From assembly GCA_035296565.1 (NCBI GenBank), contig DATHAQ010000047.1, positions 1,027 to 65,026 on the forward strand: 64,000 bases of DNA. The letters are read 5' to 3'. The notes below the pieces were generated by a model. It ran no database searches. It saw only the letters and a list, made by a program, of their open reading frames with translations, and was not told the DNA's origin. This document shows, in pieces, positions 264-38,867 of this stretch. The translations under genes and the position numbers were made by a program. How positions within the stretch are numbered: position 1 is the first letter of the stretch; every line of letters starts with the position of its first letter. Source of the DNA: Thermoleophilaceae bacterium (GTDB lineage: Bacteria > Actinomycetota > Thermoleophilia > Solirubrobacterales > Thermoleophilaceae).

Positions 264-268
264 GCTTC

Positions 269-336
269 GCGCGCACGCGCACGCCCTGCGGGAACTTCAT
301 CAGCGCCCTGACGAATTCCCCGAGAGGGTGGCGTGC
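269..336. repeat. Copy E (degenerate) of the palindromic-core intergenic repeat family
   Basis: GCGCACGCGCAC block, then TCAGCGCCCTGACGAATTCCCCGAGAGGG. This aligns with the copies at 4561-4640 and 28561-29025. It lies between the convergent gene ends at 263 and 338. Confidence 0.5.
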
Positions 337-337
337 T

Positions 338-1066
338 TCAGGCCCGTAGCCGCCTGCGCAGCTCCAGCGCGTTGCGGACGGCGAATCCCTCCCAGTCGTT
401 GTTGAAGTACACGTAGACCTCGGCGCGGCGGCGCCACTGGCTGATGCGCCGGGCCCAGGTCGCGATCTCCGCGCTCGAGTAGTTGCCCCGGCGCCCGCGT
501 GCTCCGTAGTGCAGGCGCACGAGGGTCCAGTCGCTGGTCAGCTCGTGCTCTACGTGAGGGCGCGCGGGATGGTCGCCGATGGCCAGCGCCACGCCGTGCT
601 CGCGCAGCAGGGCATAGACGTCCGGCACGTACCAGCTCGCGTGGCGCAGCTCGAAGCAGTGCCGACCGGGCGGCAGGCCCTGCAGTGCGTAGGCCAGTCG
701 CTCGTCGTCGCGCTTGAAGTTGTCGGCCAGCTGCCAGACCACCGGGCCCAGCCGGCCGGCGCCCACCAGCGGCTCGATCGCCTCGTAGAAGCGGCTCACG
801 CCCCTGTCCATGTCGGTGAGCCGCTTCATGTGGGTCAGGTAGCGGCTCGCCTTCGCCGCGAACACGAAGTCCTCCGGGGTCTGCTCGACCCAGCGGGCCA
901 CCGCCGCGGGCTTGGCCAGCCGGTAGAACGTCGAGTTGACCTCGACGGTCGAAAAGCACTCGGCGTAGCGCTCCAGCCAGTGCGACGCCGGCAGGCCATC
1001 GGGGTACAGGCGCCCGCGCCAGTCGCTGTAGTTCCAGCCCGAGCAGCCGACGTGCGCCGGCTTCAC
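338..1066 (-). CDS. DUF72 (YecE-like) family protein
   Basis: 242-aa ORF with non-shadow composition. N-terminal GCSGWNYSDWRGRLYP and C-terminal VYVYFNND motifs are typical of DUF72. Confidence 0.85.
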   Translation of the reverse strand: MKPAHVGCSGWNYSDWRGRLYPDGLPASHWLERYAECFSTVEVNSTFYRLAKPAAVARWVEQTPEDFVFAAKASRYLTHMKRLTDMDRGVSRFYEAIEPLVGAGRLGPVVWQLADNFKRDDERLAYALQGLPPGRHCFELRHASWYVPDVYALLREHGVALAIGDHPARPHVEHELTSDWTLVRLHYGARGRRGNYSSAEIATWARRISQWRRRAEVYVYFNNDWEGFAVRNALELRRRLRA

Positions 1067-4122: not shown

Positions 4123-4542
4123 ATGAGCACTCCGCCCGACCGGGAGGCCTGGGGGATGGTGCTGGAGCTCTTCTTCAGCCACTACCGGCCTCGGGTATGG
4201 GGCGTCGCCGCCGAGTTCGACCTCGCGCCGATGCAGATGCTCGCCCTCAAGAACCTCGAGCCCGACCGCGAGCTCCCGATGAGCTCCCTCGCCCAGCTGC
4301 TGCACTGCGACGCCTCGAACGTGACCGGCATCGTCGACCGGCTGGAGGGGCGCGGGCTCATCGAGCGCCGCCCCTCCTCGGAGGACCGGCGCGTGAAGAT
4401 GATCGCCGTGACCGAGGAGGGCCAGCGGGTGCGCCAGGAGATTGCCGAGCGCATGAACGAGCCTCCTCCCCCCATCGCAGCGCTCTCCGAGGACGACCAG
4501 CGCAGCCTGCGCGACGTCCTCGCCCGGGCCCTCCGCGGCTAG
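4123..4542 (+). CDS. MarR family transcriptional regulator
   Basis: Winged-HTH pattern LAQLLHCDASNVTGIVDRLEGRGLIERRPSSEDRRV. Divergent from the ABC exporter operon. Start at MSTPPD (ATG 4123) preferred over the ORF-track start at 4081. Confidence 0.85.
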   Translation: MSTPPDREAWGMVLELFFSHYRPRVWGVAAEFDLAPMQMLALKNLEPDRELPMSSLAQLLHCDASNVTGIVDRLEGRGLIERRPSSEDRRVKMIAVTEEGQRVRQEIAERMNEPPPPIAALSEDDQRSLRDVLARALRG

Positions 4543-4560
4543 CGGCCGGCCGGCGTCGTG

Positions 4561-4640
4561 AGGCACGGCTCCCCTGTGAAAAATTGCTCAGCCGGCTGAC
4601 GAATTTCTCCGCAGGGAGGGCACCACAGCGCCGGGTGACT
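4561..4640. repeat. Copy D of the palindromic-core intergenic repeat family
   Basis: GCTCCCCTGTGAAAAATTGCTCAGCCGGCTGACGAATTTCTCCGCAGGGAGGG, with the perfect 12-bp palindrome TCAGCCGGCTGA at 4588-4599. Lies between the convergent marR and doxX ends. Confidence 0.6.
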
Positions 4641-4653
4641 TCAACCCAGCGCG

Positions 4654-4682
4654 AGGCACGGGCGATCTCTGTGCCCGTGCCT
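4654..4682 (-). terminator. Strong hairpin 20 nt 3' of the doxX stop (terminator-like, no U-tract)
   Basis: AGGCACGGG ... CCCGTGCCT gives a 9-bp perfect stem, extendable by C-G, with a loop of about 9 nt. Confidence 0.3.
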
Positions 4683-4701
4683 CCGCGGCTGGAAAACCGG
4701 G

Positions 4702-5225
4702 CTAGGCGGCCTGCGGGTGCGCGGAGCCTCCGCGCCTGCCCAGGACCCGCCCGCCGGCCACCACGCCTGCTCCGCCTGCCACGCCGACGGCCAGCGCAGC
4801 CAGCGCCCAGCCGGACCCGGCAAGGTCGAGCCCGAGCGCGTTGTCGAGCGAGGCCGCACCCGGCCCCACCGCCGACAGCGCGAACAGCGCCGCGATCAGC
4901 GTGAGGTTGAACTCGACGCCGCCGTCCGTGTTGAAAACCCGTTTGCCAGGTGGACGGTGAGCATGGCCGTGACCATCACGGCGATCAGACCGGCCGCGGC
5001 CACCGGGGTCAACAGCCCGAGGGCAAGCAACACACCCCCGACGAACTCGATCGACCCTGACGCCAGGCCATGGAAGCGAGCCGGCTCCAAGCCGAGGGAG
5101 CCCATGAAGCCCGTCACGCCCTCGATGCCCGGCCCGCCGAACGCGCCGAACAGCTTCTGAGCGCCGTGTGCGGCGAACAGAACGCCCACGAACGCGTGGA
5201 GCACCAGCAGTCCTTCGGTCATCAC
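4702..5225 (-). pseudogene. DoxX family membrane protein, reading frame broken by a 1-nt indel
   Basis: N-terminal two-thirds is in ORF 4896-5225 (...MLTVHLANGF). The conserved C-terminal part (FNTDGGVEFNLTLIAALFALSAVGPGAASLD...) is in the frame of ORF 4702-5289. The junction is at GGGTTTTCAAC (minus strand, about 4931-4941). One extra T would restore HLANGFFNTDGG. Confidence 0.6.
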
Positions 5226-5254
5226 AACTCCTTCGGTCTTCCGAACTTCGGGTA

Positions 5255-5269
5255 CTTACGTAACGTAAG
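5255..5269. promoter_or_regulatory. Inverted repeat CTTACG-TAA-CGTAAG in the divergent doxX/antiporter spacer
   Basis: Perfect 6-3-6 palindrome in an AT-enriched 101-nt divergent intergenic region. Confidence 0.3.
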
Positions 5270-5326
5270 CATACCCGTTGTGTGCGCAACCAAACCGCCC
5301 GAGACCGGCGGTTCTAGCTTCGTCCT

Positions 5327-7247: not shown

Positions 7248-7323
7248 CCCTTTTTTCCGGGTTATTCGTCGTATCTCTTGGGAGAGAGGCTGATTGCAAA
7301 GCCTCGCCCCAATTGTCCCCGTC

Positions 7324-7332
7324 TGCTAATAT
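7324..7332 (+). promoter_or_regulatory. Extended -10 element (TGcTAATAT) ending 8 nt before the sigma-factor GTG, suggesting a possible leaderless mRNA
   Basis: TGCTAATAT at 7324-7332. There is no Shine-Dalgarno sequence between it and GTG 7341. The local region is AT-rich. Confidence 0.3.
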
Positions 7333-7340
7333 TTCGATAA

Positions 7341-8192
7341 GTGTCGAACGATCGCAATCTAGTCCCTGAAGTCACCACCGACTCCCTCCAGCTCTTCTTC
7401 AACGAAGCGCGGCGTCACCCCCTGCTCACCGCAGAGGAGGAGATCGAGCTCGCCAAGCGCATCGAGAAGGGCGATCTGGCGGCCAAGGACCGCATGATCA
7501 ACGCGAACCTGCGCCTGGTGATCTCGGTCGCCCGCAAGTACCAGGGCCAGGGCCTGGCCCTCGGGGACCTGATCCAGGAGGGCATGCTGGGCCTGATCCG
7601 CGCGGTCGAGAAGTTCGACTGGCGCAAGGGCTTCAAGTTCTCCACCTACGGCACCCTGTGGATCCGTCAGGCGATCGGCCGCGGCCTGGCCAATTCCGGC
7701 CGCACCGTGCGCCTGCCCGTCCACATCGTGGCCCGTGCCCGCAAGATCGCGGACGCCGAGCGCAAGCTGGCCGTCGAGTTGGGTCGCGAGCCCACCGACG
7801 CCGAGATCTCCGAGCGCGTCGAGCTGCCGATCGACGAGGTCATGGACATCCGCCGTGCCGACCAGACCCCCTCCTCGCTCGACCAGAAGGTCGGCGAGTC
7901 CGAGGAGACCGCCCTGGGCGACCTGATCGCCGGGTCGGAGCCCGGTCCCGCCGAGGAGGTCGGCGAGAACCTGGCCGGCGAGGCTGTGCATCAGGCTGTG
8001 GAGCAGCTGCCCGACGCCGAGCGCGACGTGCTGCGGCTGCGCTTCGGCTTGAGCGGCTCCGAGCCGGCGGCCCTGCGCGAGACCGGCAAGCAGCTCGGCC
8101 TCTCGACCGAGCGGGTGCGCCAGCTCGAGGACCGCGCCCTCAAGCGCCTGTCGCGCGACGAGGACCTTGCGGCCCTGCGCCAAGCCGCCTAG
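7341..8192 (+). CDS. RNA polymerase sigma-70 family factor (RpoD-like, group 1/2 architecture without long region 1.1)
   Basis: Regions 1.2 to 4.2 are recognisable: [79 protein letters not shown]. Confidence 0.9.
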
Positions 8193-15543: not shown

Positions 15544-15957
15544 ATGAAGAAGATCGTTCTGTCTGCCGTCGTCGGCGGCCTTGCCGTGGTCGCGCTCTCG
15601 CCGCTGGCCGAGAGCGCCCGTCGGGGGCCGACCGTCAAGACCATCGACCGGCTGGGTGCGGAGGTCACGGTCGCCCCCAGCCAGGTGGAGCTCGCCAAGG
15701 CGGGTTGCCCGCGCGGCTACGCGCCCGTGGCCGGACAGGAGCTCCTGGGGGCGACCGAGCTCGTCTACTCGATCCGAACCATCTCCAAGCGCGGCTGGGA
15801 GATCGCCGTGGGCAACTCCACCAACTCGCCGCAGGACTTCAGCGCTGGCGTGATGTGCCAGAAGGGCGGCAGCGGCGTCCGGGTGCGCTCGGCAAGCACC
15901 TCGAAGCGGCGTCAGATGATCGCCGCGGCACAGGAGCGACTACGCGCTGAAGACTGA
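15544..15957 (+). CDS. Exported hypothetical protein
   Basis: ATG with signal peptide MKKIVLSAVVGGLAVVALSPLAES. Two Cys residues and non-shadow composition. No family recognised. Confidence 0.6.
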   Translation: MKKIVLSAVVGGLAVVALSPLAESARRGPTVKTIDRLGAEVTVAPSQVELAKAGCPRGYAPVAGQELLGATELVYSIRTISKRGWEIAVGNSTNSPQDFSAGVMCQKGGSGVRVRSASTSKRRQMIAAAQERLRAED

Positions 15958-15958
15958 G

Positions 15959-16329
15959 TGGAGGCGGCCGGCTCTGCCCCGGCGTCCGCGGAACTGCACC
16001 CCGATGCTTGCTACGAGCGTTCCCGTCGGAGTCTGATCTCGGCGCTCCGGCTCGGTCGATCCGCGGGACACGTTGCCGGCGCCATACCCTCCTGTAGGTG
16101 TCCCCCCGGACCGAGGGTCCTGTCCGGAGGTGAGCCCGCTGATTGAAGCCGCTGACCGGGCCGCGGGCTGTCCCGGCGCGACTCCCTCACACGCTGTTAA
16201 GCGGCGAGGGCGAACTCATGATCGGAGTCCGCACTTGGTTTGTTTCCGGGACTTTTTTACGAGGCCAACCCGGAGTCCTCGGCTCGCTACATCGGGACGA
16301 CGATTCCACGTCGAATCTGGATCGCCCCC
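15959..16329 (-). ncRNA. ssrA: tmRNA (SsrA), one-piece, about 371 nt, CCA not encoded
   Basis: Minus strand starts GGGGGCGAUCCAGAUUCGACGUGG. It contains the conserved GGUUGGCCUCGUAAAAAAG just before the tag ORF. The 3' end reads GGACGCCGG-GGCAGAG-CCGGCCGCCUCCA. The 7-bp acceptor stem GGGGGCG/CGCCUCC has a G3-U wobble (Ala identity). smpB and rnr are nearby. Confidence 0.9.
16197..16232 (-). other. tmRNA tag reading frame: (A)DSDHEFALAA plus stop
   Basis: GCG GAC UCC GAU CAU GAG UUC GCC CUC GCC GCU UAA. The resume codon is inferred from position after the CGUAAAAAA element and from the actinobacterial-type ...ALAA ending. Confidence 0.7.
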
Positions 16330-24591: not shown

Positions 24592-25221
24592 TCAGGGGCG
24601 GAACCGCCACCGCGTGAGCAGGTCGCCCCCGCCCTCTACCAGTGAGAGCAGCTCCAGCTGAGGCGGCGGGTCCAGCTCCGGGCCCGCGACGATGGTGAGC
24701 GGATCCCGGCCCCCGACGAGTTGAGGGCTCAGTGTGAGGAACAGCTCGTCCACCAGCCCGAGATCCATCAGCGAGGAGTTCAGCGTCGGACCGCCCTCGC
24801 ACAGGATCGACCGCACGCCGTGCTCGGCGCGCAGGAGCTCGACCAGAGCGACGGGGTCGTCGCCGACGATCGCGCCGGCCAAAGGGACGGCACCACTGCG
24901 GCTCACCACCGCCATGACCGGCTCGGCATCGAGGCCGCGGACCTGGCGGCGCGCGCGAGCCTCCTCGGTCTTGATCACCCGGCCATAGCCTTCGGCTCTC
25001 ACCGTGCCGGCACCGGCCATCACGCAGTCGACGCGCTCGCGGAGCCCGTGGAACAAAGCGTGGTCGGCCTCGCCGCCCAGGCCCGTCGTGCGTCCCTCCA
25101 ACGTGGCGCGGCCGTCCACGCTGGCCACCATGTTCAGCGCGAGGTACGGCCCCTCGGGCGGAAAGCCCTCCAGAAGCTCTCCCACCTCCAGCTCTGCGGG
25201 ATCGGGGAACAGCCGGCGCAC
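24592..25221 (-). CDS. RibD C-terminal domain / dihydrofolate-reductase-like pyrimidine reductase family protein
   Basis: NMVASVDGRATLEG ... FHGLRERVDCVMAGAGT ... ILCEGGPTLNSSL. GTG 25221 (VRRLFPDP) is preferred; the ORF-track start is 25281. Confidence 0.7.
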   Translation of the reverse strand: MRRLFPDPAELEVGELLEGFPPEGPYLALNMVASVDGRATLEGRTTGLGGEADHALFHGLRERVDCVMAGAGTVRAEGYGRVIKTEEARARRQVRGLDAEPVMAVVSRSGAVPLAGAIVGDDPVALVELLRAEHGVRSILCEGGPTLNSSLMDLGLVDELFLTLSPQLVGGRDPLTIVAGPELDPPPQLELLSLVEGGGDLLTRWRFRP

Positions 25222-25324
25222 GCCCGCGAGACTAGGGCGTGAGCTTTTGCGCCCTGGTGTGTTCCAGGGTCGAGCGCCCACTGTGGACGCTCGCCGCCGC
25301 TATCCCGATACTGAGACCTCAAGG

Positions 25325-26647
25325 ATGACGCCAAAGAGCCTCCTCGCCCCGGCCCGACTGGCCGGTGTCCCCCTTCTGCGCTCCCAGAGCGACGAGCGGC
25401 TGGTGGACCTCGTCCGCGCCGGCAACGACGCGGCCTTCGAGGCGATCGTGGCGCGCTACCGGCGGCCGCTGCTGCGCTACTGCACGCGCATGCTGTCCGA
25501 CGAGCGCGCCGAGGACGTCGTCCAGCAGGCCTTCCTGCGCGCGCTGGCGGCGATGCGCCGCGACGAGCGCCCGCTCGACCTCAAGCCCTGGCTCTACACC
25601 ATCGCCCACAACGCCGCGCTGAACGCCCTGCGCGAGCGCTCCCTGCCGAGCGACTCCCTGGAGGAGGAGATCGACGGCGTCGAGCGCCCCGAGCAGGCCT
25701 TCGAGCGACGCGAGGGGCTGCGCTCGGTGATCGCTGCCGTGGGCGCGCTGCCCCAGCGCCAGCGCGACGCCCTGGTGCTGCGCGAGCTCGAGGGCCGCAG
25801 CTACGACGAGATCGCGCGCGAGCTCGGTGTCAGCGACGGCGCCGTGCGCCAGCTGCTCAACCGCGCGCGCACCACCCTGCGGGCCGGCTTCACGGCGATC
25901 ACCCCCACGGCCCTGCTCCTTCGCATCCCGCTCGAGGCCGACGAGCCGCTGGCCGACCGCATCGCCGAGCTGACAATGGCCTCGGCCGGCCTGGGCACGG
26001 TGGCCGCCAAGGCCGCCGCCGGCGCGTTGGTCGCCGGAGCGGTGATCGGCGGCATCGCCGCGGCGCCCGAGACGGTCGGCGACCCCCGGCGACCCCCGGC
26101 ACACGGCGCGGTGGCTGATGCTCGTGACGAGGTGGCGGCCGCGGTCGCCGACGACGAGCACGGCTCACCGGCCTCAAGGGACCGAAGCCGCGACGCGGGC
26201 CCGAACGCCGACGGCGACCGGAGCGCTGGCCTGAGCGGCGACTCCCTCGGCGGCGGCGACGACCGCAGCGGCAGCTCGGGCGCGGACAGCGCCGACGACG
26301 ATCCCTCGGCCCCCGGCGACGACTCGGGCCCCAGCGACTCCAGCGGCCCCGGCCCCGGCGGGGACGACAGCTCCGGTTCCAGCGGACCGGGCTCGGGCGA
26401 CGTCTCCAGCGGCGACTCCTCGGGGCCGGGCAGCGGGGACGACGCCGCTCGCGTGGACGACAACTCGGGCAGCGGCTCCTCGGGCTCGGGCTCCTCGGGC
26501 AGCGGCTCCTCGGACTCGGGCTCCTCGGGCAGCGTCTCCTCGGGCTCCTCGGGCAGCGGCTCCTCGGGCTCCGACTCGTCCGGTTCGGGCGTCAGCGGAT
26601 CGGGCAGCGGCGAGGACCGCTCCGGGCCCTCGGGCGACGCCTACTAG
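25325..26647 (+). CDS. ECF-type sigma-70 factor fused to a predicted TM segment and an approximately 180-aa Ser/Gly/Asp-rich tail
   Basis: Sigma-2 (RYRRPLLRYCTRML...DVVQQAFL...KPWLYTIAHNAALN) and sigma-4 (LPQRQRDALVLRELEGRSYDEIARELGVSDGAVRQLLNRAR). Next comes a hydrophobic stretch GLGTVAAKAAAGALVAGAVIGGIAAAP, then a low-complexity tail. ATG 25325. Confidence 0.8.
   Translation: MTPKSLLAPARLAGVPLLRSQSDERLVDLVRAGNDAAFEAIVARYRRPLLRYCTRMLSDERAEDVVQQAFLRALAAMRRDERPLDLKPWLYTIAHNAALNALRERSLPSDSLEEEIDGVERPEQAFERREGLRSVIAAVGALPQRQRDALVLRELEGRSYDEIARELGVSDGAVRQLLNRARTTLRAGFTAITPTALLLRIPLEADEPLADRIAELTMASAGLGTVAAKAAAGALVAGAVIGGIAAAPETVGDPRRPPAHGAVADARDEVAAAVADDEHGSPASRDRSRDAGPNADGDRSAGLSGDSLGGGDDRSGSSGADSADDDPSAPGDDSGPSDSSGPGPGGDDSSGSSGPGSGDVSSGDSSGPGSGDDAARVDDNSGSGSSGSGSSGSGSSDSGSSGSVSSGSSGSGSSGSDSSGSGVSGSGSGEDRSGPSGDAY
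26468..26580 (+). repeat. In-frame tandem 15/30-nt repeats (GGCAGCGGCTCCTCG/GGCTCGGGCTCCTCG) encoding (GSGSS)n
   Basis: Direct inspection of 26461-26600, within the sigma-factor tail. Confidence 0.7.
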
Positions 26648-27696: not shown

Positions 27697-28515
27697 CTAG
27701 CGCCGCTCGAGCGCCATGCTCAAATCAAGTGCCGGAGCCGAGTGGGTCAGGGCCCCGACGCTCACGAAGTCCACCCCCGTCGCCGCGATCGCGCCCACGG
27801 TCTCCAGGGTGACTCCGCCCGAGGCCTCGAGCTCCGCCCGGCCCGCTGTCAGCGCAACCGCCTCGCGCAGCTGCTCCGGCGCCATGTTGTCGAGCAGGAC
27901 GCGCGCCGCCCCGGCATCGAGCGCCTCCCGCAGCTCCTCCAGGTCCCGGCACTCGACCTCGACCAGCATGCCGTCAGGCGCCCCCTCCTGAGCGGCGCGG
28001 ACCGCGGCCGCGACCCCGTCGGCCGACGCGACGTGGTTCTCCTTGATCAGCACGGCGTCCCACAGGCCGTGGCGGTGGCTCATGCCGCCGCCGACTACCA
28101 CGGCCGCCTTCTCGAGCTCCCGCATCCCAGGCGTCGTCTTGCGGGTGTCGAGGATGCGCGCACCCGTGCCCTCGACCGCCGCGACGTAGCGGGCGGTCAG
28201 CGTGGCCACGCCCGACAGCCGGCCCAGCAGGTTCAGCGCCGTGCGCTCTCCGGACAGCAAGGGCGCCGCGGGGCCCTCGACGGTCGCCACCGGCCCGCCC
28301 TCGCGCCACTGCCCCTCCTCGGCCAGGGGCTCCCAACGCAGGGCCGCGTCGAGCCGGCGAAACACCTCCCCGGCCGTTTCCATTCCGGCGATGACACCCG
28401 GCGCCTTCTGCTCTATCCGAGCCCGCGCCCGCGCGGCGTCGGGAACCACGAGCTGCGTCGTGACGTCGCCGCCACCTACGTCCTCGGCGAGTGCTCGATC
28501 GATCAGGTCCCCCAC
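27697..28515 (-). CDS. nadC: Nicotinate-nucleotide pyrophosphorylase (carboxylating) NadC
   Basis: LIDRALAEDVGGGDVTT, ILDTRKTTPGMR, LIKENH, LDNM motifs. GTG 28515 was chosen because the ORF-track start (28650) reads through repeat copy A. Confidence 0.85.
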   Translation of the reverse strand: MGDLIDRALAEDVGGGDVTTQLVVPDAARARARIEQKAPGVIAGMETAGEVFRRLDAALRWEPLAEEGQWREGGPVATVEGPAAPLLSGERTALNLLGRLSGVATLTARYVAAVEGTGARILDTRKTTPGMRELEKAAVVVGGGMSHRHGLWDAVLIKENHVASADGVAAAVRAAQEGAPDGMLVEVECRDLEELREALDAGAARVLLDNMAPEQLREAVALTAGRAELEASGGVTLETVGAIAATGVDFVSVGALTHSAPALDLSMALERR

Positions 28516-28560
28516 GCGGCCGACAGTACTGGCCGCCAGACCGGGCGGGGCGGGCCCGAA

Positions 28561-28682
28561 CGCACGCGCGCGAGCAGACGCGCGGGCCCTCCCCCGAAAA
28601 ACGCTCAGCCGCCTGACGAGTCGGGCGACCGGCGTGCGTGCGCTGCGCACGACCCCGCGGCGCCCGGGCGCGCGGCGGGTCG
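28561..28682. repeat. Copy A of the palindromic-core intergenic repeat family
   Basis: CCCCCGAAAAACGCTCAGCCGCCTGACGAGTCGGGCG with core at 28605-28616. Flanked by inverted CGCACGCGCGCG / CGTGCGTGCGC blocks. Confidence 0.6.
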
Positions 28683-28800
28683 GCGCGCACGCACGCTCCC
28701 TGCTCGAAAACCCTCAGCCGGCTGACGAGCTGGGCGAAGCAGGGCGCGACGTCGCGGTGACCGGGAAGAGCCGCGGCGCTCCACCCGCGGGTGGCAGCGG
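28683..28800. repeat. Copy B of the palindromic-core intergenic repeat family
   Basis: GCGCGCACGCACGCTCCCTGCTCGAAAACCCTCAGCCGGCTGACGAGCTGGGCGAAGCAGGGCGCGACGTCG... with a perfect core at 28714-28725. Followed by the CCACCCGCGGGTGG palindrome. Confidence 0.65.
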
Positions 28801-28911
28801 AAGCAACTTGCCCGCGCCCGAAGGGCGCGAGTGCAAGGAAGTTCCGCTGACAGGACCCGCGGCCGGGCGGCCCGGAGCCCAACCGGCCGGCGCCCGAGGG
28901 GCGCAGGAGCT

Positions 28912-29025
28912 CTGCGCACGCGCACACATCCCCTCAAAAACCCTCAGCCGCCTGACGAGTTGGGCGGGAGCAGGGCGCGACGTCGGGTCATGCGGGGAGC
29001 GTTACGGCGCCCCCACGCGCGGGTG
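28912..29025. repeat. Copy C of the palindromic-core intergenic repeat family
   Basis: CTGCGCACGCGCACACATCCCCTCAAAAACCCTCAGCCGCCTGACGAGTTGGGCGGGAGCAGGGCGCGACGTCG... with core at 28944-28955. Aligns with copy B over about 95 nt. Begins about 10 nt 3' of the prfB stop on the minus strand. Confidence 0.65.
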
Positions 29026-29034
29026 GCCAAAGGC

Positions 29035-30152
29035 CTAGTCCGTAACAGCACCGCCCGAGCGCCGCAGCAACTCGGCTCGCACGAACTCGTCGAGATCCCC
29101 GTCCAGCACCCCCTGGGCGTTCCCCACCTCCACATTGGTCCGGTGATCCTTGACCATGGTGTACGGGTGCAGCACGTAGGAGCGAATCTGGGAGCCCCAG
29201 GCCACGTCCTGGGCGTCACCCTTCTCGCGGGCCATCTCCTCACGGCGCCGCTGCTCCTCGAGCTCGACCAGCTTGGCCTTCAGCATCGCCATGGCGGTCG
29301 TCTTGTTGGCCGACTGCGAGCGCTCGTTCTGACACTGGACCACCACACCCGTGGGCTTGTGGGTGATGCGCACGGCCGAGTCGGTCTTGTTGACGTGCTG
29401 GCCGCCGGCGCCCGACGCGCGGTAGGTGTCGATCTGGAGGTCCTCGTCGTCGACCTGGACGTCGACGTCGCCCTCCACCAGCGGCGCCACCTCCAGGCCG
29501 GCGAAGGCGGTGTGACGGCGTGAGGCGGCGTCAAAGGGCGAGATGCGCACCAGCCGGTGCACACCCTTCTCGGCCGAGAACAGCCCGTAGGCGTTCTCGC
29601 CGCGAGCCAGGAAGGTGGCCGACTTGATGCCCGCCTCCTCTCCGGGGCTGGCCTCCTTCATCTCGGTCTTCATTCCGCGCCGCTCGGCCCAGCGGAGCTC
29701 GGTGCGCAGAAGCATCTCGGCCCAGTCCTGGGAATCGGTGCCGCCGGCGCCGGCGTTGACGGTGACCATCGCGTCGCCGGAGTCGTAACGCCCCCCGAAC
29801 AACCGCCCCTCCTCGAGCTCGGCCAGCCGCTCGCCGACCGAGCGCCGCGTCTCGTCCAGCTCGCCGGCGATCGACTCGTCCTCGGCGGCCATCTCCTCGA
29901 GGGCCTCGAGATCCTCGATGTCGCTCTTGAGCGAGCCGAAGGCCTCGACGCGCTTGCTCAGCTGGGCGTGCTCGGAGGAGACCCGGGCGGCGCGCTCGGA
30001 GTCGTCCCAGAAGCCCGGGGTCTGCATCTCCTGCTCCAGCGCATCGCGGCGCTCGGTCAGGTCGGCGGGGTCAAAGAGAGTCCGTGAGCAGCTTCAGCTG
30101 GTCACGGAGCGCCTCGGCGTGAAGGGAACGAGTGTCCTCCGACGGTCGTCCG

Positions 30153-30163
<11 letters not shown>
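29035..30163 (-). CDS. prfB: Peptide chain release factor 2, requires programmed +1 frameshift (frame 0: 30163-30074; frame +1: 30072-29035)
   Basis: ATG 30163 gives MARSGRPSEDTRSLHAEALRDQLKLLTDSL, then an in-frame TGA. The +1 frame continues DPADLTERRDALEQEMQTPGFWDD..., then SPF, GGQ (ASGAGGQHVNKT) and the rest of RF2. The +1 frame is closed by TGA 7 codons upstream of the shift site. Confidence 0.9.
30070..30076 (-). other. RF2 autoregulatory +1 frameshift site CUU UGA C
   Basis: Minus-strand CTTTGAC. The heptamer is identical to the classical prfB shift site. The upstream Shine-Dalgarno-like element is weak or absent (CACGGACUCU). Confidence 0.85.
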
Positions 30164-33011
<2,848 letters not shown>

Positions 33012-35880: not shown

Positions 35881-37041
35881 TCAGGCCCAGGACGTCAGGT
35901 AGAGCCGCTGACCCTCGGTGAGCTCGTCGATCGACACACCGAGGGCGGCGAGCTTCAGCCGAGCGACCTCGTCGTCGAGCTCGGGTGGCACGGCGAGCAC
36001 CTTGGGCTCGAGCTTCCCGGCGTTCTGGATCAGGTGCTCTACGGCGAGCGCCTGGAGCGCAAAGCTCACGTCCATCACCGACGCCGGGTGTCCCTCGGCG
36101 GCGGCGAGGTTGACCACGCGGCCGTTGGCGAGCAGGTGGAGTCGCTTGCCGCCGACGTCGAACTCCTCCACCAGCGGCAGCACCTGCCGCGAGGGGCCGT
36201 CGGCCACGCCGCTGAGCGCGGCGATGTCGATCTCCACGTCGAAGTGCCCCGCGTTGGCCAGCAGCGCCCCGTCCTTCATGCGTTCGAAGTGCTCGCTGCG
36301 CAGGACCGAGCGCGAGCCGGTGACCGTGACGAAGATGTCGCCGCGCTCGGCAGCCTCCAGGATCGGCATCACCTCGAAGCCGTCCATGCGGGCCTCCAGC
36401 GCACGGAACGGGTCGACCTCGCAGACAACCACCGCCGCGCCCGCCCCGCGGGCGCGCTCGGCGACCCCCTTACCCGCGAAGCCGTAGCCCAGCAGCACGA
36501 GGGTGTGGCCCGCCAGCAGGATATTGGTGGCGCGCAGGATGCCGTCGAGCGCTGACTGGCCGGTGCCGTGACGATCGTTGAAGGTGCGCTCGGTGCGGGC
36601 CTCGTTGACGGCCAGGATCGGGTAGCGCAGGCCGCCCTCCTCGGCGAGGTGGCGCAGGCGCACGATGCCCGTGGTGGTCTCCTCGGTGCCGCCGAGCGCC
36701 TCGTGGCCGGCCGCGTTGACCCCGGTGACCAGGTCCGCGCCGTCGTCGAGCGTGATCTGCGGCTCGGCCCCGACCAGATCCTTCACGTGGGCCACGTAGC
36801 TCTCGGCGCTCTCGCCGCGCTCGGAGGAGATCGCCACCTCCTCCGCCGAGAGAGCGCCGACCACGTCGTCCTGGGTGGACAGCGGGTTGGCCGCGGCCAT
36901 GCGGACATCCGCGCCGCCGCGCCTGAGCGTTCGGGCCAGGACCGCCGTCTCGGCCGTCACGTGAAGGCAGGCGGCAACGCGGATCCCGTCGAGCGGGCGC
37001 TCGTCCTCGAAGCGCCGGGCTATGGAGCGGAGGACCGGCAT
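35881..37041 (-). CDS. Short-form (Thermotoga/archaeal-type) S-adenosyl-L-homocysteine hydrolase paralog
   Basis: LHVTAETAVL, NPLSTQDDV, EETTTG, NDRHGTGQS, GYGFAGKGVA (NAD fold), ANAGHFDVEID, and it ends ...YLTSWA. It lacks the approximately 40-aa insertion and the C-terminal tail of the adjacent ahcY product. Confidence 0.8.
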   Translation of the reverse strand: MPVLRSIARRFEDERPLDGIRVAACLHVTAETAVLARTLRRGGADVRMAAANPLSTQDDVVGALSAEEVAISSERGESAESYVAHVKDLVGAEPQITLDDGADLVTGVNAAGHEALGGTEETTTGIVRLRHLAEEGGLRYPILAVNEARTERTFNDRHGTGQSALDGILRATNILLAGHTLVLLGYGFAGKGVAERARGAGAAVVVCEVDPFRALEARMDGFEVMPILEAAERGDIFVTVTGSRSVLRSEHFERMKDGALLANAGHFDVEIDIAALSGVADGPSRQVLPLVEEFDVGGKRLHLLANGRVVNLAAAEGHPASVMDVSFALQALAVEHLIQNAGKLEPKVLAVPPELDDEVARLKLAALGVSIDELTEGQRLYLTSWA

Positions 37042-37075
37042 GCGGCCCTCCGCCCAGTTGATGCGTTCGCTGCCC

Positions 37076-38497
<1,422 letters not shown>

Positions 38498-38516
38498 TCT
38501 TCTCCTGTGATCGTGG

Positions 38517-38867
38517 TCAAGAGGCGGCCAGGAGCGCTTCGTGCTTGCGCTGCTCCCAGTCCAGCCAGTCCTCGGAAGCGACGCCCTGGGGGCGTTCGGG
38601 CTCGGACTCGAGCCAACTGTCCAGCTCCCCGCGTAGATCGTCCTCGTTGCGCAGGCGCGCGGCGAAGGCGACGTCCGACAGCCCGCAGTCGAAGCGCTCC
38701 AGCAGCTCGCGCAGGGTGCGCAGGCGTTGCAGCTCTCCGGGGCCGAACACGCGGTACCCGGCCGGCGTGCGCTCCGGATCGACGAGACCACCGCGCTCGA
38801 GATAGCGCAGCATCCTCGGCGACCAGCCGGTGAGCTCGGCCGCCTGATGGATGGTCAGGCCGTCCAT
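38517..38867 (-). CDS. MerR family transcriptional regulator
   Basis: N-terminal [41 protein letters not shown]. 19 nt upstream of ahcY. Confidence 0.85.

Follow-up and report, generated by a model that had tools for sequence, protein, structure and literature searches.

The prfB–nadC spacer of an uncultured Thermoleophilaceae bacterium probably holds an array of a lineage-specific, modular, MITE-type palindromic repeat with a terminator-like hairpin

The window, the whole 64-kb (64,000-nucleotide) stretch of DNA analysed here, has a GC content of 71.6% (~72%) and comes from an uncultured Thermoleophilaceae host, whose nearest NadA proteins belong to uncultured soil Thermoleophilaceae (82–94% amino acid identity). 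On the minus strand the genes of the locus follow the order secA, prfB, spacer, nadC and nadA, with the features listed here.

30153–33011, minus strand: secA.
29035–30027 plus an upstream frame, minus strand: prfB (RF2), with a programmed frameshift site, CTTTGAC, at 30076.
29035–29037, minus strand: TAG stop codon of prfB, within CTAG, abutted by the right terminus of repeat unit C (see below).
28516–29034: prfB–nadC spacer, 519 nt.
28523–28528, minus strand: TACTGT, putative −10 box of a nadC promoter, 7 nt upstream of the GTG.
28513–28515, minus strand: GTG start codon of nadC (272 aa), the same start as in the gene call of assembly L184.

The arrangement TACTGT-N7-GTG is kept in the window, in strain L127 (97% identical across nadA-nadC-prfB) and in the relative L120, despite a different upstream neighbour in the latter. 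Judging from the sequence, the nadC mRNA is probably leaderless and transcribed from a putative promoter of its own. A small protein encoded in the spacer was considered and rejected, as the open reading frames overlapping it lack codon-position GC periodicity; their GC content is flat across the three positions (0.70–0.83), against a GC3 of 0.90–0.93 and a GC2 of 0.44–0.52 in real genes, and the spacer is therefore non-coding. The same 519 nt recur without change in the independent assembly L184, so the array described below is not an assembly artefact; another contig, L186, agrees with the spacer until it ends inside unit B. Among relatives the prfB–nadC interval is a variable spot, carrying other cargo in L120 (TetR-MMPL-GGDEF) and an acetyltransferase, an AMP-ligase and FtsH in L122 and L183.

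The original prediction of three same-orientation copies of one repeat (A, B and C) in this spacer was borne out. The 17-mer CTCAGCCGSCTGACGAG is present exactly at 28604, 28713 and 28943 (plus strand) and with one mismatch at 4587, compared with a chance expectation of 1.8 occurrences in the window when up to three mismatches are allowed; an HMM and the identical spacer of L184 agree. Two further copies, D and E, lie elsewhere in the window, the fifth being detected at 274–335 with an E-value of 1.7e-5 by an HMM made from A–D alone, and thus independently of copy E. With single copies as queries, the other copies were the best non-self matches (B–C, E = 3e-9; A–C, E = 4e-5), with A–B, D and E recovered only marginally. 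The units and their parts are as follows.

28543–28649, minus strand: unit A, a variant type; apex 28604–28620, U5 tract 28597–28601, purine/pyrimidine tracts 28560–28572 and 28632–28643.
28650–28794, minus strand: unit B; apex 28713–28729 with a perfect TCAGCCGGCTGA, U4 tract 28707–28710, purine/pyrimidine tract 28683–28696, small palindrome 28651–28681, CCACCCGCGGGTGG at 28781–28794.
28777–28871, minus strand: long rod-like hairpin, 95 nt, between B and C.
28850–28887, minus strand: linker from unit C to the long hairpin, conserved in the array of metagenome contig L125.
28888–29034, minus strand: unit C; apex hairpin 28943–28959, U5 tract 28936–28940 (AAAAA on the plus strand), purine/pyrimidine tract 28913–28929, palindrome CCACGCGCGGGTGG at 29013–29026.
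4543–4644, minus strand: copy D; apex 4587–4603, U5 tract 4579–4583; between the convergent genes for MarR (plus strand, ending at 4542) and DoxX (minus strand, ending at 4702).
264–346, minus strand: copy E, 83 nt; apex 300–317, no U-tract, TAG at 261–263 and at 347–349.

The extent of the units had been underestimated. Homology between B and C covers 28658–28795 and 28888–29027 (143 nt aligned, 79% identity, E = 2e-22) rather than about 95 nt, with a start-to-start spacing of 230–231 nt; the boundaries first proposed for these two copies (114–118 nt) were likewise too short for units of about 140 nt with a period of about 231 nt. This period was missed by TRF, there being fewer than two copies at 79% identity. 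The stretch 28801–28911, initially left unassigned, contains a separate conserved module, the 95-nt hairpin. Inverted arms do bracket copy A, as had been noted, with a length of only about 7–11 bp.

On the gene strand (minus), copies A–D share the apex CUCGUCAG-NNNN-CUGAG(S)G, with U4–5 directly after it, and for A, B and C the more detailed minus-strand reading offered earlier, CUCGUCAGSCGGCUGAGSG plus UUUU(U), holds. On the same strand, 5–12 nt beyond the apex U-tract, lies an alternating purine/pyrimidine tract, GYGUGCGYGUGCGC; tracts of this kind are not enriched across the window (33 observed, 43 expected) and are simply part of the repeat. Read along the plus strand, a unit consists of a GC-rich left end, an alternating GCGCACGCGCAC tract, a GAAAA run and the apex hairpin, and past the apex a right arm ending in CCACCCGCGGGTGG, the optional 95-nt hairpin and a right end at a TAG stop. 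In a MAFFT alignment, copy E, unit C, unit B with its hairpin, and the copies in L078 (another Thermoleophilaceae MAG), L125 and L127 are collinear versions of one modular element; the closest relative of the variant unit A is found in L123 (matching 28593–28664, E = 1e-7). Unit sizes range from 83 to 230 nt, with a GC content of 70–75% and an apex of 7–8 bp set inside a longer imperfect palindrome.

In the long hairpin, CCGCGGGU/ACCCGCGG (28853–28864 with 28781–28794) close a stem-loop (28795–28849) whose minus-strand loop is C(UUCG)G, and both strands fold with about −62 kcal/mol (z about −5.4 to −5.5). A 90.7% identical hairpin is found in L078 in an unrelated gene context, following what we take, from its translated sequence, to be a homoserine-kinase-like gene, and it differs from that of the window by one compensatory G-C to A-U change. 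The hairpin is present twice in the second array, on L125, where one of the two shows a base change without compensation and lacks 4 nt of the stem; the comparison covers only three full copies, with one compensatory and one disruptive change. In the window, L078 and L125 every long hairpin is followed by a terminator-like unit, and the hairpin is absent from the 97%-identical strain L127 and from copies A, C, D and E. Within the repeat it is an internal module that may be present or absent. The possibility of an integron attC site was rejected for this hairpin, the R''/R' core sites (RYYYAAC/GTTRRRY) being absent, and scans of viral contigs for the hairpin and the core returned 47 chance matches and 0 matches.

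The gene-strand apex is predicted to form a 7-bp bulged hairpin followed by U4–5, a module resembling a Rho-independent terminator. Copies A–D combine, as intrinsic terminators do, a GC-rich hairpin with a U-tract on the gene strand, and at all loci the repeat lies downstream of a co-oriented stop codon. The U-tracts are short (4–5 U), and a simple terminator scanner applying a stricter rule made no call on the repeat modules. Of 13 copies compared, 11 have the more stable fold on the strand bearing the U-tract, and in 10 the advantage over the complementary strand is 2.5 kcal/mol or more. Runs of T are very scarce: the two strands of the 64-kb window together have only 19 of at least four T, four of which belong to the repeat family, as do three of the five runs of at least five T.

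The earlier statement that the repeat matched no known RNA family held against Rfam 15, which at gathering and permissive thresholds gave no family in the spacer, L078 or L125; in these sequences no matches below E = 1 were present beyond chance miRNA-like ones, and the sole Rfam match in the window was the tmRNA (15956–16329). The suggestion of a structured RNA found no support for the apex, which has no Rfam match and no significant covariation: two pairs show double changes, and the observed score is attained in 47 of 500 shuffles. CUGACGAG...GAAA was also considered as a hammerhead-like motif and rejected on inspection, as stems I and III have no room between the motifs and Rfam gives no match.

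The search for further copies, extended from the window (D and E) to other contigs, metagenomes and relatives, placed the family at no fewer than nine independent loci in the window species and close relatives. A scan of JGI metagenomes with a specific 23-nt exact pattern gave 11 loci, six of them real: L124 corresponds to copy D of the window (99.5% identity) and L127 to the window's own spacer region (97%), and L123, L125, L128 and L133 are new loci. Since only six real copies emerged from this exact-pattern scan, copy number may be low. Scanning genome contigs with the bare 16-mer core was unspecific (119 loci, nearly all chance), and only L078 was useful. Relatives of the repeat with an altered apex occur after prfB in L120 (NadA 94% identical) and also in L187. 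The L120 site is a canonical terminator, ATCGUCCG / AUCGUCCG-GCGG-CGGACGAU-UUUUU, and differs from the window apex by a compensatory A-U to C-G change. L188 contained no copy, and neither did ~100 kb of the relatives L121, L122 and L181–183, whose NadA is 87–88% identical at the amino acid level and whose nucleotide identity across the locus is ~78–79%. Because it is absent from these relatives, the family is narrow (species to genus level), and its copy number is low to moderate. A BLAST search of the spacer against a plasmid collection gave no match, and a literature search on repeats in Thermoleophilia found nothing relevant.

Placement relative to genes had been singled out as a check in the original prediction. 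Each locus lies downstream of at least one gene, and of the eight loci that could be classified, five are between convergent genes, three are in tandem contexts and none is between divergent genes. Orientation is uninformative in convergent contexts, and the informative tandem contexts are the prfB spacer and L078 only. Copies abut a TAG at nine loci (prfB, L125, L078, L123, L128, L133, MarR, DoxX and the oxidoreductase gene beside copy E), and the flush TAG junction is also seen in L127 and L120; the copy in L187 abuts TGA. The association of copies with TAG has a p of about 0.004. As TAG is already the commonest stop codon of the lineage (70 of 129 crude gene calls, 54%), this association is only moderately significant, and the idea of a CTAG or TAG target is weakened.

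Copy E provides the clearest view of how a unit may arrive at a gene end. In L187, L188 and L189 the corresponding site contains no insert, and the two convergent genes, encoding a luciferase-like (LLM-type) oxidoreductase and a DUF72 protein (87–89% identical in L187–L189), overlap by 12 nt across a junction reading ...CGCGSC-TAG-CCGCC.... In the window the same junction holds an 83-nt insert (264–346) bracketed by TAG, and the DUF72 reading frame now terminates within this insert, at a new stop codon (338–340). By its sequence, copy E is an apparent clean insertion with a 3-nt TAG duplication, in one case, this being the only clean filled-versus-empty site and the other loci being uninformative; the TAG duplication could also be microhomology from a deletion in the relatives. 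Where the window carries copy D, a HAD hydrolase gene is found in the relative L187. Copy E and the L078 composite have similar termini, with TA-GC..TTCGCGC at one end and TTCAG..GCC(C)G-TAG at the other. Terminal inverted symmetry is weak, and complementarity between the flanks of the same copy is not better than that across copies (p about 0.12).

Within the array, units lie head to tail and their number varies between strains, as in a tandem-repeat (VNTR) locus. The spacer of the 97%-identical strain L127 measures 288 nt and contains A plus only one B/C unit; compared with that of the window, it lacks exactly one unit of 231 nt. The second array, on L125, comprises two hairpins and a single unit up to the point where the contig breaks off. 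TA dinucleotides occur in the spacer only at 28527, 29003 and 29036, and none is at a unit junction; we therefore attribute growth of the array to unequal recombination and not to serial insertion, and the array is more likely a product of recombination. Neither a transposase or RAYT family, the IS200-like type proposed earlier included, nor a parent IS with matching ends was found among the ~40 window proteins and the called genes in ~190 kb of relatives, which is a weak negative.

Taken together, we consider it probable that nested or tandem units of a modular, non-coding palindromic repeat of the MITE type make up the spacer, and that this repeat is lineage-specific and carries a terminator-like hairpin. 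The copies have the properties of MITEs in being shorter than 300 bp, non-coding and dispersed, with a target-site duplication and a filled/empty polymorphism at E only. We infer both terminator activity and a transposition mechanism. TAG/TA sites at gene ends would receive new units through transposition or recombination, and unequal recombination between units would lengthen or shorten the arrays. An inserted hairpin with its U-tract would terminate or stabilise upstream transcripts. As three modules are stacked between the end of prfB and the putative promoter of the probably leaderless nadC, they would, if active, act as insulators of that promoter from prfB read-through. High-GC Actinomycetota have few canonical terminators, and how transcription ends in them is still debated. 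The element would account for much of the small stock of canonical terminators in this genome of 72% GC.

A fairly unlikely alternative is that these are ordinary host intrinsic terminators, conserved by selection or gene conversion in the manner of TRIT, perhaps with a dedicated factor, which are not mobile and have undergone local tandem duplication. The hairpin with its U-tract on the gene strand at gene ends is what such terminators would look like, the orthologous post-prfB hairpin of L120 evolved in situ with a compensatory change, a sequence-conserved terminator has a precedent in TRIT (PMC3152330), and the change of unit number between strains fits unequal recombination. Against this, copy E is a discrete 83-nt insertion where the genes overlap in three related contigs, and homology among copies extends far beyond the hairpin, to the purine/pyrimidine tract, CCACCCGCGGGTGG, the termini and a shared 3-nt arm deletion. 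The family is, in addition, missing from relatives that are ~78–79% identical in DNA across the locus.

A bolder form of the mobile reading is also unlikely, namely that the repeat is a self-propagating terminator cassette, placed flush at TAG stops, which, in a 72% GC lineage with hardly any U-tract terminators, has become the main source of intrinsic terminators and parts overlapping convergent genes, with the rod as a functional 3'UTR RNA module. In that case the rod may serve, for example, as an exonuclease block or as a handle for a protein or RNase III.

We regard as improbable a multicopy structured small RNA, either from its own genes or 3'UTR-derived, in which a long hairpin plus terminator yields a functional RNA product. 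The order of stop codon, 95-nt rod hairpin and terminator module in L078 and L125 would suit it, as would the C(UUCG)G loop on the gene strand and the great stability of the hairpin (z about −5.5), which is 90.7% identical at unrelated loci with one compensatory pair. However, no promoter-like −10 box is present upstream of the hairpin, which folds equally well on both strands. The degenerate L125 copy (uncompensated change, 4-nt stem deletion) also argues against it, and the 97%-identical strain lacks the module, as do copies A, C, D and E. Rfam gives no match, and the 3–4 copies known are too few for covariation.

It is very improbable that the palindromic cores TCAGCCGGCTGA serve as double-stranded DNA binding sites, either as an operator array for NAD synthesis or as sites for a nucleoid or topology protein. 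Three palindromes do lie upstream of nadC, with conserved TCAG/CTGA half-sites around a variable 4-nt centre, and each copy is accompanied by alternating purine/pyrimidine tracts, which are Z-DNA-capable. However, the same core adjoins genes unrelated to NAD synthesis (DUF72, MarR/DoxX, fumarase/HxlR, aldehyde dehydrogenase), so that an NAD-specific form of the protein-binding array suggested in the original prediction is unlikely; moreover, the cores are situated 80–430 nt upstream of the nadC −10 box, the asymmetry of the arms and the adjacent U-tract are left unexplained, and a close strain has one copy fewer. Chance similarity of GC-rich, low-complexity sequence, for which a 72% GC content with many weak expected inverted repeats and several probably fortuitous two-copy families in the window could be cited, has a negligible probability given three exact 17-mers where none is expected, the HMM hit to copy E (E = 1.7e-5), the B–C alignment (E = 2e-22) and the recovery of copies in other contigs and genomes.

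The MITE-type repeat array, our preferred reading, adds a further example to a kind of element already known and is not a new class of mechanism. Insertion at stop codons, as at copy E, would establish repeat elements as a means by which terminators spread, and the repeat would help to annotate gene ends in uncultured Thermoleophilia. The array also breaks short-read assemblies, contigs L125 and L186 ending inside it, and, varying between strains, it could serve as a strain marker.

Among known systems, REP/BIME elements and REPINs are extragenic palindromes at gene 3' ends, with mosaic clusters, strain-variable copy numbers and proposed roles in termination and mRNA stabilisation. The present repeat shares their 3'-end palindromes, clustering and strain-variable copy number. 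It differs in that BIME units alternate in orientation, whereas A, B and C have the same orientation, in that REPs have no target-site duplication, and in that no RAYT (Y1 transposase) was present in the DNA examined. The original suggestion of a terminator-bearing REP-like element therefore stands as regards the dispersed palindrome, the hairpin with its U-tract and the position at gene 3' ends; the REP label itself fails, since the array copies have one orientation, one copy has a TAG duplication and no RAYT was seen.

Correia elements duplicate TA. With these and other bacterial MITEs the repeat has in common a short, TA-containing target duplication and a possible effect on transcript ends. 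It also resembles them in being shorter than 300 bp, non-coding, palindromic and dispersed, with presence/absence polymorphism (PMC10969869), but Correia elements have clear 26-bp terminal inverted repeats, whereas the termini here are weakly inverted and no parent IS was identified. BOX, the modular boxA-boxB(n)-boxC MITE of S. pneumoniae, is similar in that an internal module is optional or variable; like the present repeat, it varies in length, folds into stable RNA structures, clusters in intergenic regions and differs in unit number between strains. The two differ in sequence, host and module set, and BOX has defined terminal inverted repeats and target-site duplications.

TRIT, the Tuberculosis Rho-independent terminator, has 147 copies (Gardner et al., 2011; PMC3152330). 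It is a sequence-conserved palindromic terminator at gene ends in a high-GC actinobacterial lineage poor in canonical terminators, as here, and it is genus-restricted and mostly bidirectional (PMC3152330). However, TRIT is centred around −8 relative to the stop codon, inside the coding sequence, whereas the units described here are flush after the stop; they also have extra modules and form arrays, and mobility has not been proposed for TRIT. Besides mycobacterial TRIT, a second and unrelated terminator-like repeat of conserved sequence would be instructive.

The closest analogue appears to be the pneumococcal SPRITE, a terminator-like interspersed repeat with AAAA/TTTT ends that has about 30 copies and is species-restricted (PMC3049150, PMC10969869); SPRITE and BOX clusters are also precedents for clusters of repeats (PMC3049150, PMC10969869). 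Both SPRITE and the present element are small, non-coding repeats with a predicted RNA stem followed by a U-rich tract and with AAAA/TTTT flanks. Both lie near the 3' ends of coding sequences, are over-represented between convergent genes, strongly so in SPRITE, and cluster with other repeats (PMC3049150), and SPRITE, with tens of copies in one species group, likewise has no known transposase (PMC3049150). SPRITE differs in being AT-rich with an 18-bp stem, compared with 70–75% GC and a 7–8 bp apex here, and in having no empty site or target-site duplication found, compared with one TAG-flanked insertion here. There is no sequence homology to SPRITE, BOX or TRIT. For the element as a whole, a modular MITE-like or SPRITE-like repeat is a better description than a REP-like one.

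Gene content between prfB and nadC changes among relatives, which marks the interval as a hotspot (contigs L120, L121, L122, L182 and L183 of the relatives versus window 28516–29034). The cargo consists of TetR, MMPL and GGDEF genes in one relative, acetyltransferase, AMP-ligase and FtsH genes in others and proteases in L121, and in the window strain the palindromic terminator-like repeats are the sole content of the interval. Short-read contigs terminate within the repeat array, both in L125 (1–290), a metagenome contig with a second array, and in L186 (1–252), which matches the window as far as a point inside unit B; the repeat element therefore breaks assemblies. Judging from these terminations, counts of the element's copies in metagenomes are probably too low.

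The prfB gene carries an RF2 +1 programmed frameshift site of the classical type, CTT TGA C (window 30070–30082, minus strand). Frame 0 closes with LTDSL followed by the stop codon, and the +1 frame goes on with DPADLTERRDALEQEM.

Near repeat copy D (4543–4644), a frameshift apparently divides the DoxX-family gene (4702–5225, minus strand): ORF 4896–5225 holds the N-terminal part, and the C-terminal part falls in the frame of ORF 4702–5289. The gene is a pseudogene, or else the sequence contains an error. The DoxX of L187, a contig of a relative, is intact (173 aa). Right behind the DoxX stop lies a 12-bp hairpin, GAGGCACGGGC...GCCCGUGCCUC, distinct from copy D (window 4654–4684; about 5905–5945 in L187), in which a U4 run precedes the stem rather than trailing it. 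L187 keeps this hairpin, with one A-U pair replaced by G-C in a compensatory change.

Elsewhere in the window, the tmRNA gene has the usual neighbourhood, ftsE-ftsX-smpB-ssrA:

15956–16329, minus strand, tmRNA gene (ssrA), Rfam RF00023, 114.5 bits

A short AT-rich island, TTTTTTCCGGGTTATTCGTCGTATCTC...GCTAATATTTCGATAAG (7250–7340), conspicuous against the 72% GC genome, separates the end of an ArsR-like gene from a sigma-70 family gene (7341–8189); it may act as a strong promoter or have a regulatory role. Within the 3' part of an ECF-sigma-domain gene (25004–26647), about 7.5 copies of a 15/30-nt tandem repeat, CTCGGGCAGCGGCTC (26464–26572), probably encode a low-complexity repeat tail of the product. 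S-adenosyl-L-homocysteine hydrolase is represented by two neighbouring tandem genes (35881–38851, minus strand): one is called at full length (591 aa), and the other, a paralogue of 420 aa, gives weaker matches.

The tetranucleotide CTAG is rarer than expected (40 observed against 165 expected), with most occurrences at stop codons. Among 129 crude gene calls from the whole window and related loci, TAG is the commonest stop codon (54%), followed by TGA (36%) and TAA (9%), an unusual order for a 72% GC actinobacterium, in which TGA is normally the dominant stop.
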